DNA from: a virus | DNA: 42,956 nt | Virus record (IMG/VR): IMGVR_UViG_3300045988_080709 | Strand: one strand, 5' to 3' | Shown: one piece after another, positions 3,896-21,937 of the stretch | Position numbering within the stretch: position 1 is the first letter of the stretch | Layout of the letters: each line of letters begins with the position of its first letter | Made by a program: the position numbers and the translations under genes | The notes under the pieces: generated by a model | The model's database searches: none | What the model saw: only the letters and a program-made list of their open reading frames with translations | Told to the model about the DNA's origin: nothing

Positions 3896-4081
3896 TTATG
3901 CGGAGGCGTGCTGCCTGTACCGGTATCCCTTGGGGCGTTCCTCTGGATAAGTCCGATAATAGAGGTATAAAGCATATTGCACAGATACGTTCCCGTGTGC
4001 TGGCAGATTTGGGTTCCGGTCCAATGCCGCCCTATATAATAGGTAGGCATCGTGATTCTCAAAAATAATATTCTCTTTCAT
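3896..4081 (-). CDS. Possible 61-aa basic, Tyr-rich protein (first ORF of the cassette)
   Basis: ATG 4081 lies 8 nt after GAAAGAAGG and about 43 nt after the predicted TSS of promoter 4131-4159. Sequence MKENIIFENHDAYLLYRAALDRNPNL...YRTYPEERPKGYRYRQHASA. Two other frames are also open here, so a long structured leader remains an alternative. Confidence 0.4.
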   Translation of the reverse strand: MKENIIFENHDAYLLYRAALDRNPNLPAHGNVSVQYALYLYYRTYPEERPKGYRYRQHASA

Positions 4082-4130
4082 TCGTGCAACCTTCTTTCAA
4101 AAAACAGAACATTTGTTTGTTGTATACTTA

Positions 4131-4474: not shown

Positions 4475-5574
4475 ATCTCAAAGGCTTTGTCTGCCGCTCC
4501 GGCAGCGTCTTCCTTATCCAGTACAATATGGTTATACACCTCCATGACCATCCTCTCAGTATCCCCCAACATCTCAGCAATCTTTTTGATGGAGATCATT
4601 GGTATCTGGTAGCAGAGGTTGGTGCAGTAATTGTGCCTGAATACATGGGCTGTAAGACCTGTAATAGGCTCCTCAGAGACCGCCTGCATGGCTTTGATGA
4701 TACGTGCCCACATCTTATCATAACTGCTCTTTGTGATCGGCTGACCATTGCGCATGACAAAGAGCTGGGTGCGCTTTAGTGATTTGACATAAGCCTCAAT
4801 GACCGGGAAAACTACTGCCGGTATGGGGACAGTACGATACCCATTGTCCGTCTTTGGGCATTTGGGTGCAGGCTTGTCATTTACAAATCCTATAGCTTTG
4901 TTAACGGTCAGTGTGCGCCGCTTGAGGTCTACGTCAAATTTGGTGAGTGGCAGGGCTTCTCCACGCCGTAGACCACAACCGTACAGGATATACACAAATG
5001 CCTGGTCTTGTGTGGATAACTCAGCCGCAAACAGAGCTTTTTGTTCATAATTGGTCAGTGGCCGCTTTTCAGCCGGACGATATTTGATCGTATCCATATT
5101 ATTGAAAATATCCTCCATGACATTGGCTGCAAAAAGCTGATCAGAGACAGCGGAGCGCAATACTTGCTTAAATGTGAGCTGGATTTGCTGCTGAGTGCGC
5201 TTTTTATCACTGGTGTTGGTCATCAGCATTTGATAGTGCACCCGGCCTATGTCCTGCAGCTTGACGCCTTTTAAAATCACAAAATGCTTGTCTATGATGT
5301 TTTTATACATTGCCTGAGTATTGGTCTCCTTCCCGGCCTTGTAGACATCCATCCACGCCTTTGCATAATCGTAAAAGGTTACGTCTGATATACGCAGGTG
5401 TTTACGCGTCTCCACGTCCTGGTTGAACTGGTTTACTTTGTTCTCCAGGTCCTTACTGCTCTTTTTACTGCGCAAGGTCACGTAGTGCTTTGTGCCGTCA
5501 TCATTGTAACCACCGTCCCAGACGCGTGTCTGGAAGTATCCGTTTTTCTGCTTGGTATATTTTGCTTTTGCCAT
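4471..5574 (-). CDS. int: Tyrosine recombinase / phage integrase
   Basis: 367 aa. Catalytic contexts GLRRGEAL (Arg), HVFRHNY (His-x-x-Arg) and a C-terminal ...MVMEVYNHI (Tyr). N-terminal SAM-like arm/core-binding region. AGGAGG RBS. Confidence 0.95.
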   Translation of the reverse strand: MAKAKYTKQKNGYFQTRVWDGGYNDDGTKHYVTLRSKKSSKDLENKVNQFNQDVETRKHLRISDVTFYDYAKAWMDVYKAGKETNTQAMYKNIIDKHFVILKGVKLQDIGRVHYQMLMTNTSDKKRTQQQIQLTFKQVLRSAVSDQLFAANVMEDIFNNMDTIKYRPAEKRPLTNYEQKALFAAELSTQDQAFVYILYGCGLRRGEALPLTKFDVDLKRRTLTVNKAIGFVNDKPAPKCPKTDNGYRTVPIPAVVFPVIEAYVKSLKRTQLFVMRNGQPITKSSYDKMWARIIKAMQAVSEEPITGLTAHVFRHNYCTNLCYQIPMISIKKIAEMLGDTERMVMEVYNHIVLDKEDAAGAADKAFEM

Positions 5575-20393: not shown

Positions 20394-20837
20394 ATGGACA
20401 AGCAAAAGTTGGAGAGGTATAAGCCCTTAAAACGGGAGTTACTAATGCTTGACAAGCAGATAAGCAAGCTGGAGGAACGCCGGGAGGAGCTTCCGGTGGT
20501 GATGGGGAAAGTACAGTCCTCAGACCATGAGTTTCCTTATACAGCACGTAGAGCTACTGTGCAGATGCTAGAGCCAAAGGCGGCAGATAAGATAGACAAA
20601 GAGATTGCTAGAAAACAGGCCAGAAAGAGCCAGATTGAAGCTGAATTGAAGGAAGTAGAGGACTTTATCTGTAGCATACCAGAAGGAGAAGAACGACAGG
20701 TATTTGAATTGTATTATCTGGAAGGAATGAAGCAGAGAGAGGTTGCGGACATAGTGGGATTAGAGAGGAGTAGCATATCAAAAAAAATTAGTGATTATCT
20801 GCAACTTTCACACAATTCACAAAAAAATATGCTATAA
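20394..20837 (+). CDS. Late-gene regulator, sigma-70 region-4-like (DUF1492 / ArpU-RinA class)
   Basis: ATG 20394 lies 8 nt after GAGGAGG. ERQVFELYYLEGMKQREVADIVGLERSSISKKI is a region-4 HTH. It is the last gene before the packaging module. Confidence 0.8.
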   Translation: MDKQKLERYKPLKRELLMLDKQISKLEERREELPVVMGKVQSSDHEFPYTARRATVQMLEPKAADKIDKEIARKQARKSQIEAELKEVEDFICSIPEGEERQVFELYYLEGMKQREVADIVGLERSSISKKISDYLQLSHNSQKNML

Positions 20838-21042
20838 TTAAAATAGAACGAGTATAACAAAAAGACAATATCCTCCTCTTTGTTATCCGGCTGCGGGGTG
20901 TCACAGCTCCGCGGCTGATTTGCCGGTTCCAGGTAATCCAGCAGGTTTGCCCCATTAGTGGGAAACATAGCATGGATGCCGGGACGTAACCGTATGTCCC
21001 AGGTCTGGGATAAATAAATGGTCGTTGAATAAAATGACTGGT

Positions 21043-21114
21043 AGTGCAATGATGTAATAGGGAGCATACCTGGCATGTGGCTAGGAAGCGCCGGTTCGAG
21101 TCCGGTTTGCACTA
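21043..21114 (+). tRNA. 72-nt tRNA with a canonical cloverleaf but A33 in the anticodon loop (nominal anticodon UGU, Thr)
   Basis: Acceptor AGTGCAA/TTGCACT (7/7). U8. D arm ATGT-AATAGGGA-GCAT. Anticodon arm CCTGG-CATGTGG-CTAGG. Variable loop AAGC. T arm GCCGG-TTCGAGT-CCGGT. Discriminator A. No encoded CCA. Confidence 0.65.
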
Positions 21115-21220
21115 TAGCTTATCTGCCGCCGGATCACCGGAGAGGCAGGGAGTACGACAGCATAATGTGCACTGAGTGCTGCGTGGCCTCCAGGATTATC
21201 CCCTGGGGTAAGCAATAGAG

Positions 21221-21253
21221 AGCGTCTGGTCAGATAACTGGCTGGGCGCTTTT
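21221..21253 (+). terminator. Intrinsic terminator closing the untranslated tRNA region
   Basis: AGCGTCTGGTCAG-ataa-CTGGCTGGGCGCT, 13 bp including 4 G-U/U-G pairs that are valid only in plus-strand RNA, followed by TTT. Confidence 0.6.
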
Positions 21254-21281
21254 ATAATGGGTTTATGGCATGGAGGTTAGT

Positions 21282-21617
21282 ATGAGAGTTAATATACTTG
21301 GGACTAAATACAGAATAATTATAGCCACAAATGAGGAAAAACCTAAGCTGAATGAATGCGACGGTTATATAGACCAAACTATAAAAGAGATAGTGGTCGG
21401 TAAATTCGAGAAATGCCATATGAGTGTGGAGGACCTTCAAACCCACACAAAGAATGTAATGCGGCATGAAATCATACATGCATTCTTGTACGAAAGTGGA
21501 CTATGGACGAATAGCGGGAATGTAGAGAATTGGGGGCAATCTGAGGAAATCACCGACTGGATTGCTCTTCAGTTCCCAAAGATGCTGAAAGTATTCCAGG
21601 AAGCGAAATGTATTTAG
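21282..21617 (+). CDS. Small HExxH zinc metallopeptidase-like protein (111 aa)
   Basis: ATG 21282 follows GGAGG. Motif VMRHEIIHAFLYESG. Track ORF 21270-21617. Confidence 0.75.
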   Translation: MRVNILGTKYRIIIATNEEKPKLNECDGYIDQTIKEIVVGKFEKCHMSVEDLQTHTKNVMRHEIIHAFLYESGLWTNSGNVENWGQSEEITDWIALQFPKMLKVFQEAKCI

Positions 21618-21642: not shown

Positions 21643-21671
21643 TTGACACTATGAAACATATGTTCTATAAT
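21643..21671 (+). promoter_or_regulatory. Perfect TTGACA-17-TATAAT promoter with a Cheo/LexA-box-like palindrome in the spacer
   Basis: TTGACActatgAAACATATGTTCTATAAT. The segment 21654-21665 (AAACATATGTTC) is 11/12 to GAAC-ATAT-GTTC. Confidence 0.7.
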
Positions 21672-21703
21672 TAGCATAAGAACAAATGTTTGGAGATGAT
21701 AAA

Positions 21704-21937
21704 ATGAATACCGGACCAACAAAAAGGCAGATGGATGTATATAACTTCATTGTCGATTATATAACCAAGAATATGTATTCCCCGTCTGTGAGGGATATAT
21801 GCAAGGCAATAGGGATTAGCTCCACATCAACAGTATGGAAGCATTTAGAGGCGTTAAAGCGTTGGGGACTGATTGATTATAAGCCAGCACAGACGAGGAG
21901 TATAGTATTAAAGGGCTATAAACTGGTAAAAGAGTAA
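21704..21937 (+). CDS. LexA-like winged-helix DNA-binding domain only (77 aa, no S24 peptidase domain)
   Basis: ATG 21704 follows GGAGATGA. PTKRQMDVYNFIVDYITKNMYSPSVRDICKAIGISSTSTVWKHLEALKRWGLI matches the LexA N-terminal pattern. The protein ends 20 aa later. Confidence 0.8.
   Translation: MNTGPTKRQMDVYNFIVDYITKNMYSPSVRDICKAIGISSTSTVWKHLEALKRWGLIDYKPAQTRSIVLKGYKLVKE

Follow-up and report, generated by a model that had tools for sequence, protein, structure and literature searches.

The locus

The subject of this report is an intergenic region in a 42,956-nucleotide (nt) stretch of viral DNA (IMG/VR record IMGVR_UViG_3300045988_080709; the whole stretch is referred to below as the window). 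The region lies directly downstream of a gene for a small sigma-70 region-4 protein (20394-20837) and is followed, in order, by genes for a small HExxH protein (21270-21617) and a protein with a LexA DNA-binding domain, and by terS and terL. It holds a tRNA-like cloverleaf with an aberrant anticodon loop, surrounded by other structured elements (Table 1). Our reading of the region is that 20845-21257 form a single plus-strand noncoding RNA gene of a Blautia-type temperate phage, mosaic in construction, whose tRNA slot holds a tRNA-derived module that would be kept for its top half (the acceptor stem and T arm) and processed by RNase P and RNase Z. Taken as a whole, with the transcription and processing that it presupposes, we give this reading a somewhat better than even chance of being right.

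Table 1. The RNA gene of the window and its promoter region
Feature	Positions	Strand	Basis or remark
Promoter-like site, TTCACA-17-TAAAAT	20816-20844	+	Consensus scan; overlaps the extended -10
Extended -10, TGcTATAAT	20830-20838	+	Spans the stop codon of the upstream regulator gene
M0, 5' leader AUCCUCC...UUUG	20870-20887	+	CCUCC...UUG motif directly 5' of M1 in nearly all relatives
M1, 12-bp hairpin CGGCUGCGGGGU / GCUCCGCGGCUG, loop GUCACA	20888-20917	+	Covariation, stability
M2a, variable central domain	20918-20992	+	Common to relatives L001, L002 and L016
Py hairpin, UCCCA-GGUC-UGGGA	20997-21010	+	In every family locus that reaches that far
M4w, A/U-rich hairpin GGUCGUU-GAAUAA-AAUGACU	21020-21039	+	Predicted in the full-length minimum free energy fold
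tRNA-like cassette, nominal Thr-UGU	21043-21114	+	ARAGORN, Rfam tRNA model, comparison of sister copies
M5, 100-nt four-way junction H0-H3	21117-21216	+	RNAalifold consensus fold
Intrinsic terminator, 16-bp stem with several G.U pairs, then UUUUAUAAU	21218-21257	+	Folding

The cloverleaf

The cloverleaf, to which an initial annotation of the window from its sequence had drawn attention, is real in shape and goes beyond a chance match. ARAGORN makes a single call across the entire window, a tRNA-Thr(tgt) at 21042-21115, and the Rfam tRNA model (RF00005) matches 21043-21114 at 47.9 bits (E=4e-9), above its gathering score of 29. Read directly from the sequence, the acceptor stem (AGUGCAA/UUGCACU) is paired at 7 of 7 positions, and U8, A14, a GGG in the D loop, the T loop UUCGAGU and a 4-nt variable loop are all in place; the sequence together with the model alignment shows that the tertiary positions of the D and T loops that a decoding tRNA should have (U8, A14, G18 G19, U54 U55 C56) are present. 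The anticodon arm is another matter. Its stem is CCUGG/CUAGG and its loop, at 21074-21080, is CAUGUGG, which places A at position 33 and G at 37 and 38, as had been claimed, around a nominal UGU anticodon. A decoder should offer a 7-nt loop with U33 and a purine at 37; in the window loop position 33 is A and C32 is predicted to pair with G38. The minimum free energy (MFE) fold reproduces the cloverleaf with that pair formed, which reduces the anticodon loop to 5 nt, and no alternative fold with a canonical anticodon loop was found for it. CCA is not encoded: the discriminator A is followed by UAG. When 50,697 phage records were searched with the 72-nt element by blastn, the sole match was a chance one of 24 nt, so that no nearest real tRNA emerged.

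A point of method bears on all of the Rfam results that follow. Scanning the whole window in gathering mode yielded no match, tRNA included, despite the 47.9 bits that the element scores when a 701-nt stretch is scanned in evalue mode. Gathering-mode negatives on long inputs are therefore not trustworthy alone, and reliance is placed here on evalue-mode scans of short stretches, which recover tRNAs.

A mosaic of RNA modules

About 60 related phage, prophage and metagenome loci (designated by L numbers) were gathered from IMG/VR, gut metagenomes and genomes by pattern scans and protein-anchored scans; the pattern scans yielded 52 carriers of the 3' block, M5, of which 33 are distinct. Three 3'-block loci lie in the Blautia producta DSM 2950 chromosome, as prophage copies. 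Among annotated sequences the intergenic region has a single relative, in Blautia phage Montmirail, with 88-95% identity to the window over the first ~130 nt and the last ~100 nt. Between them, Montmirail has a 270-nt insertion in the middle of the RNA (between GGGACGU and AACYGYAUGUCCC) and, at the position of the window cloverleaf, a canonical tRNA-Asn(GUU).

Across the relatives the RNA is modular, with its parts in the order M0, M1, central domains M2a-e, Px and Py hairpins, M4, tRNA slot, M5 and a tail, which is one of several types, each with a terminator. M2a marks the site at which relatives hold anything from 0 to ~550 nt of other modules, and the length from leader to M5 accordingly runs from 254 nt (L020, L028) to ~840 nt (L005, L006), with the window at 346 nt. 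M4w is the constant companion of the window type of cassette, substituting for the usual M4 hairpin, GCACCG-UUNC-GGCGGUGC. M5 comprises the helices H0 (GCUUA/UAAGC), H1 (CUGCC..GGCAG with an inner CCGG/CCGG), H2 (ACGACAGCA../..UGCUGCGU) and H3 (CCUCCAGG-AUUAUCC-CCUGGGG). The terminator module of the window also closes the RNA in L004, L007, L016, L018 and L028, and closes a protein-coding gene in L072.

Every module but Py is missing in some relative, and in the L077/L080 branch Py is represented by a diverged hairpin, GCGCCCGAAUGUGGGCGC. M0 and M1 are missing from L021 and L031; M5 is missing from L067, L071, L077-L080, L079/L084 and L083, the last of which stops directly after Py. M0 and M1 persist alone in L073 and L074; L072 and L076 have the regulator and lack the RNA entirely. 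(The blastn-short matrix of module occurrence contains false negatives and doubtful positives, and is used here only qualitatively.)

Comparison of homologous regions, which the initial annotation had proposed, finds the helices of M1, M5 and Py staying paired with compensatory changes. In M1, 98.2% of cells are paired among 19 distinct sequences (slid controls, 27-57%), one pair having changed from G-C to C-G in seven of them. M1 has three G.U pairs that never vary and a fourth place that is either U.G or U-A; the other strand would present C.A (or U-A) at these places. The hairpin has a stability of -22.6 kcal/mol (z -4.4). M5 is paired in 98.4% of cells (24 distinct sequences; slid controls, 38-50%), with compensatory changes at four pairs, for example A-U to G-C in nine sequences, and the earlier identification of its CTGCC...GGCAG stem with an inner CCGG/CCGG is upheld by pairs that covary. 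Py is paired in 98.8% of cells (17 distinct sequences), with one A-U to G-C change (L019) and one change to G.U (L079). Two upstream hairpins had been singled out in the initial annotation. One, CTGCGG...CCGCGG, is M1 and has the covariation just described; the other, GGGAC...GTCCC (20981-21000), is not a kept hairpin, as it overlaps and competes with Py, and Py is the version that the relatives keep.

Strand asymmetry tells the same story as pairing. For the whole RNA of the window, the folding energies are -140.5 kcal/mol (z -3.8) for the plus strand and -109.3 kcal/mol (z -1.2) for the minus strand, a plus-strand advantage of 31 kcal/mol. The terminator hairpin (21218-21253) reaches -23.2 kcal/mol (z -7.0) as plus-strand RNA and only -6.2 kcal/mol as minus-strand RNA, in agreement with the earlier claim that it is plus-strand-specific, with a stem that we find to be 16 bp long. 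It is G+C-rich and followed by a U tract, as befits an intrinsic terminator; the tract is short and is not listed by a simple consensus scan. Full-length MFE folds disagree between relatives and are not used for long-range structure, and the z-scores of the 841-nt version of the RNA are not significant (20 shuffles).

Several other ideas about this sequence were tried and discarded. Protein coding is one. The initial annotation had seen no credible open reading frame in the region, and this requires an amendment: minus-strand frames of 61 and 105 amino acids do overlap it. They have no conserved counterpart, since the strand, frame and position of open frames vary from one relative to the next, and modules come and go freely. 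Three pairing partners were considered for the CCUCC leader (the downstream Shine-Dalgarno sequence, GGAGAGG in M5 and an ACUUUAA loop), and none of them holds across architectures. The complementarity of UGUGG in the anticodon loop with UCACA in the M1 loop is lost in sister copies that have a 6-nt loop, and is therefore probably due to chance. Palindromic loops are found in H2 of M5 (GUGCAC or GGAGCUCC) and in the anticodon loop of L014-type cassettes (CGGCCG). Kissing-loop dimerisation by way of the H2 palindromes is broken by L016 (GUACAC) and by L062 (GGAGCUAC), and the second type of H2 palindrome is merely the centre of a long hairpin; it is left as a weak idea.

The tRNA slot

The cloverleaf occupies a defined slot, between UGGGAUAA and GCUUAUCUG, whose contents can be compared across the 33 distinct M5-bearing loci. 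Nine of these have an empty slot. An identical canonical tRNA-Asn (68.4 bits) fills it in eight, a tRNA-Phe(GAA) whose T loop is unusual (62.5 bits) in one and a non-canonical tRNA-like element in the remaining 15, that is, in 15 of the 24 slots that are occupied. The suggestion in the initial annotation that the cloverleaf is a tRNA-like module of a larger structured RNA is thus the one that the comparative data (mosaic RNA, slot and covarying modules) bear out.

The non-canonical elements fall into lineages, of which the window type is one (a). The L014/L022 type (b) has an anticodon loop of 15-19 nt, scores ~40 bits and is assigned inconsistently by ARAGORN, to Ala or Arg. Its T stem changes by compensation, while its anticodon stem is mismatched. 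The L062/L067/L071/L079 type (c) has a short D arm and a 5-nt anticodon loop (and, in L067 and L071, the T loop UCCGAUU), and escapes detection by the tRNA model. In the L077/L078/L080 type (d), only 15 nt stand in place of the anticodon and variable arms. Further non-canonical lineages are present in loci without M5. Rfam tRNA scores thus descend from 68 bits (Asn) through 48 and 39-41 to undetected. What is common to these lineages is a fully paired 7/7 acceptor stem adjoining a T stem with at least four of five pairs, the exceptions being L062, where the 3' strand is bulged, and L080, with five of seven acceptor pairs. The discriminator (N73) is followed by U and no CCA is encoded (L062 could not be parsed), and the stretch between acceptor and T stem varies from 26 to 54 nt vs 40-41 nt in a canonical tRNA. 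A coaxial 12-bp acceptor/T-arm helix, a T loop, no CCA and U after the discriminator are the features of an RNase P and RNase Z substrate, and they are found in the window and in 13 of the 14 other cassettes; the 14th, L062, has an extra base in the 3' acceptor strand that defeats parsing.

The window lineage shows how the anticodon arm has fared at close range. Only L015 shares the 7-nt loop CAUGUGG with A33, and it has an A.C mismatch in the anticodon stem and is rejected by ARAGORN. In L005, L017, L018, L057 and L060 the loop is the 6-nt CAUGCG (38.8 bits; 'tRNA-???' to ARAGORN), with an A.G mismatch in the anticodon stem of L018, and in L016 the entire anticodon arm is deleted. Among these seven sisters the acceptor, D and T stems are 100, 100 and 96% paired (slid controls, 31-40%), and five pairs (4:68, 7:65, 10:25, 48:64 and 49:63) have changed on both sides and yet remain paired. 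The pattern of change indicates that the decoding part of the tRNA is free to decay while the acceptor/T-arm top half is selectively kept.

These observations bear directly on the proposal, also made in the initial annotation, that this is a nuclease-resistant tRNA: a working tRNA-Thr(UGU) whose A33/G37/G38 loop decodes ACA while escaping a host anticodon nuclease. The element does have a full cloverleaf, canonical D- and T-loop tertiary positions and a score above the gathering threshold; its slot holds bona fide Asn-GUU and Phe-GAA tRNAs in relatives, with a tRNA-Ile(UAU) often following the RNA; and there are documented phage tRNAs whose altered anticodon loops let them evade tRNA-targeting defences (PMC10264068). 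Against this stand the A in place of U33 and the C32-G38 pair that can close the loop to 5 nt. Neither the nominal anticodon nor the anticodon arm is conserved among the sisters, which persist in several RNA backgrounds with a 6-nt loop, mismatched stems or no arm, and the window lineage drifts whereas the tRNA-Asn copies are identical across divergent loci. With the decoding arm in that state in sister copies and the top stems kept paired, the window cloverleaf is best regarded as tRNA-derived and most likely no longer a decoder, and the proposal of a nuclease-resistant decoding tRNA as highly improbable.

If the element does not decode, it may be nothing more than a dead passenger, a tRNA gene decaying in a recombination-prone slot without a function of its own. 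A slot that may be empty or hold a canonical tRNA, anticodon arms damaged in several unrelated ways, the acceptor mismatches of L080 and the free shuffling of modules in the locus are all what decay would produce. Decay would not be expected to concentrate the damage of every lineage in the anticodon or D region, or to leave acceptor and T stems paired through double changes; nor would it readily put such elements into 15 of 24 occupied slots, or let the 6-nt-loop version recur with different 5' domains, M5 subtypes and tails, as it does. To our knowledge, useless DNA is rarely retained in phage genomes. We judge this explanation rather unlikely.

By analogy, the anticodon-less cassettes might act as decoys or sponges for host tRNA-directed defence nucleases, or for tRNA-binding proteins that recognise the acceptor/T-arm half. 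The selective keeping of the top half in at least five lineages fits, as does the wide occurrence of tRNA-targeting phage defences and phage tRNA countermeasures (PMC10264068, PMC11555353, PMC13056530, PMC12851939). This is pure analogy, which names neither a defence system nor a binding partner, and the empty slot is common; we think it improbable.

Two side observations concern tRNAs and tRNA-likes of these loci. Several relatives have a tRNA-Ile(UAU) downstream of the RNA, ~1 kb on and past small open reading frames in L001 (4627-4701), L003 (5071-5145) and L005 (5530-5604), and directly after the terminator in L018 (11630-11703); L004 has a remnant (4059-4119, 28.7 bits) and the window has none. 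The locus is a small island of tRNA and noncoding RNA. Secondly, the 15-19-nt anticodon loops of L014 (1336-1423), L022 (3688-3773) and L039 (1633-1718) always contain the palindrome CGGCCG (in GCGGCCGC or CGGCCGCGG), which could be a loop-loop contact or a protein site.

Promoter and neighbouring genes

A -10-like hexamer is present in 33 of 33 distinct relatives, mostly TG-extended and 25-55 nt 5' of the CCUCC leader. It is kept whichever regulator family lies upstream, and there are at least four or five unrelated families of these small sigma-r4/DUF1492-like proteins; in L021 and L022, a perfect TTGACA-17-TATAAT occupies the same place. A promoter kept ahead of the RNA across regulator families makes the RNA, by this reasoning, the first item to be transcribed after the late regulator. 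An AAUAGAG/AAUAGGA motif that follows the -10 (20839-20850 in the window) is also common to the 33 relatives, regardless of the sigma-r4-like family, and may be part of a common late-promoter signature or of the transcription start region.

This arrangement would suit a leader that acts in cis on the late operon, after the fashion of lambda 6S or HK022 put, with an activator firing the promoter, the RNA or its terminator controlling read-through and the tRNA incidental. A lambda 6S-like leader had been among the possibilities raised in the initial annotation. The RNA does always come after a small sigma-r4/DUF1492-type regulator and a promoter, whichever the regulator family; the same promoter drives a protein-coding gene directly in L072; M0 and M1 can persist on their own; and the terminator is separated from the Shine-Dalgarno sequence of the gene at 21270-21617 by only ~17 nt, in which a consensus scan finds no promoter, so that expression of that gene probably depends on read-through. 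The promoter-leader-terminator layout is therefore as had been proposed. What such a leader leaves unexplained is the 250-840 nt of mosaic folds, the tRNA slot and the four-way junction, none of which it requires. The genes downstream, moreover, vary widely from relative to relative and are often preceded by promoters of their own, such as the perfect one at 21643-21671 in the window, and the RNA of L021 and L022 is driven by a perfect constitutive-type promoter. On balance we consider it unlikely that the unit is chiefly a cis-acting leader, though a leader or antitermination role may exist in addition.

The genes that follow offer some observations in their own right. The product of 21270-21617 (115 amino acids) has an HEIIH metallopeptidase-like motif and only sub-threshold Pfam matches (BSP, Peptidase_M13). 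Its gene lies directly after the RNA terminator in the window, L007 and L008 and probably also in L028, of which only the Shine-Dalgarno sequence is seen. The sigma-70 promoter at 21643-21671 (TTGACA-17-TATAAT) lies ahead of the terminase genes and is overlapped and followed (to 21691) by two palindromes resembling Cheo/LexA boxes, AAAC-ATAT-GTTC and one of the GAAC-AAAT-GUUU type. Just downstream of this promoter, 21686-21937 encodes an 83-amino acid protein that is a LexA DNA-binding domain alone, and L071 has a perfect CGAAC-ATAT-GTTC at the equivalent place. This suggests SOS or LexA-type control within the late region.

Three other relatives deserve mention. In L067 (~5300-5400), the RNA is followed by a promoter and a gene for a ParA/Soj-like ATPase (MKRNVVAFLNMKGGVCKTS...), which hints that some carriers are phage-plasmids. 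L061 (5323-5389; metagenome contig OKSH01000356.1) contains a CRISPR array with at least 17 copies of the repeat ATTTCAATCCACGTCACCGCGAAGGTGACGAC, which we take to be type I-C-like. One 35-nt spacer of this array is identical to the stretch of M5 at 21183-21217 of the window, and a host has thus acquired immunity against exactly the RNA locus. A similar array (repeat ATTTCAATCCACACCACCGCGAAGGTGGTGAC) in L043 (1-150) runs directly into RNA module M2c; the contig is probably a chimera put together in assembly at a spacer matching the RNA, which would then be a second spacer against the locus.

A possible role for the top half

RNase P, RNase Z and the CCA-adding enzyme all recognise the acceptor/T-arm part of a tRNA. 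In the mechanism that we propose, the promoter, whether dependent on the late regulator or acting through its extended -10, would make a ~410-nt precursor. The maintained top half, a 7-bp acceptor stem stacked on the 5-bp T arm with the D/T elbow, would be cut at the 5' end of the cassette by host RNase P and after the discriminator by RNase Z, yielding a 5' structured RNA (M0 to M4w), a small tRNA-like RNA and an RNA made up of M5 and the terminator. The released pieces would gain stable, structured ends. In loci with tRNA-Asn or tRNA-Phe in the slot, these cuts would also release a tRNA that is itself of use; in loci whose element no longer decodes, selection would still act on the top half through its part in processing or stabilisation. 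Retention for RNase P/RNase Z processing or for stabilising RNA ends is, in our view, the best account of the module.

A number of points weigh against this and against the reading of 20845-21257 as one gene. We infer transcription, processing, RNase P and RNase Z cleavage and any downstream role of the RNA. M5, M1 and M4 are each dispensable somewhere, so that the 'one RNA' could instead be several independent elements in a row. About a quarter of the loci have nothing in the slot, and cleavage is therefore not essential to the flanking modules. The acceptor stem of L080, paired at five of seven positions, looks like plain decay. The window's own copy, with its 7-nt loop, could still be charged and used, unlike its sisters. 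Finally, the covariation is modest, as recovery by exact words brought in closely related sequences; few pairs have changed on both sides, and the shuffle statistics are inflated by shared ancestry.

Comparison with known systems

No family of Rfam 15 other than tRNA is matched by cmscan at E<=10 in window positions 20700-21400 or in 3470-4400 of L005, or at E<=1 in 14 related loci; the Infernal/Rfam scan of the region that the initial annotation had suggested accordingly finds the tRNA only. The covariance model of the conserved 3' domain of GOLLD gave no cmscan match, including at E<=10 in the 931-nt stretch that contains the 840-nt version of the RNA, and the ROOL model gave none in the same scans of the window, L005 and the 14 loci. 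The mascRNA model was likewise without a match in the region scans. Literature searches yielded no description of a mosaic, tRNA-hosting phage RNA. The larger mosaic RNA family, absent from Rfam 15, is a more interesting finding than the cloverleaf that led to it.

MALAT1 and MEN-beta with mascRNA provide the eukaryotic nuclear case of a tRNA-like element for which end formation by RNase P and RNase Z is proven. The cassettes described here resemble mascRNA in having an intact acceptor/T-arm half, a poorly conserved anticodon arm and a place directly downstream of a structured noncoding RNA; processing here is a prediction. Phage tRNAs with mutated anticodon loops (PMC10264068) have the same tRNA shape with an altered loop but remain decoders, whereas the relatives of the window cassette have loops of 5, 6 or 15 to 19 nt, or no arm at all.

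A survey of RNA motifs offers a different kind of comparison: DNAVirus_6425 and DNAVirus_6426 are covarying motifs of 64 and 81 nt in Blautia-infecting Caudovirales and are highly expressed in stool small-RNA-seq (PMC10690425). Compared by description only and not by sequence, they may be pieces of the mosaic RNA. Motifs in that survey were capped at 151 nt, and neither a large modular RNA nor a tRNA slot is described there. A tractable system for following this up exists. Blautia coccoides YL58, which belongs to the OMM12 mouse consortium, has Montmirail as an inducible prophage (PMC10197239), and B. producta DSM 2950 carries three copies of the RNA. There is also a warning for annotation, in that tRNA predictors assign Thr, Ala, Arg, Pro and '???' to what are probably non-decoders.

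Closest in kind to the mosaic RNA is GOLLD, the description of which is reportedly due to Weinberg et al. in 2009. GOLLD is a large, structured phage and prophage RNA found near tRNA islands and consisting of a conserved and a variable domain (PMC12286853, PMC12990946). It can carry a tRNA in the linker between domains, as in the case of a tRNA-Phe in J13/15 (PMC12990946; cryo-electron microscopy in PMC12286853). The RNA described here has the same habit of residing in phages and prophages near tRNAs and of sometimes embedding a tRNA between its domains. It differs in that its most constant parts are small (M1 and the Py hairpin) and lie 5' of the slot, its 3' block is only 100 nt long and optional, most of its embedded elements are non-canonical tRNA-likes and its hosts are Blautia (Lachnospiraceae). 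ROOL, likewise large and ornate, is found close to tRNA islands in Firmicute phages and prophages (PMC5737381; PMC12286853); it has a single conserved fold of ~580 nt and is not a mosaic, and embedded tRNA-like cassettes are undescribed for it. As to the homo-oligomeric cage assembly of GOLLD and ROOL, palindromic loops are present here in the sequence; they are not strictly conserved and are broken in L016 and L062.

A bolder interpretation, which we advance tentatively as a possibility, is that the mosaic RNA represents a class of large phage noncoding RNA not described before, the functional equivalent of GOLLD and ROOL among Lachnospiraceae phages of the gut. It would be made at the onset of late transcription, and in it tRNAs would have been repeatedly domesticated into anticodon-less modules that serve as RNase P/RNase Z punctuation, stabilising ends or decoys in tRNA-directed defence. 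At least five cassette lineages keep the acceptor/T-arm half only. GOLLD and ROOL are among the most conspicuous bacterial RNAs without known function, and a third, unrelated family that neighbours tRNAs points beyond coincidence of neighbourhood to a general link with the tRNA-processing machinery.

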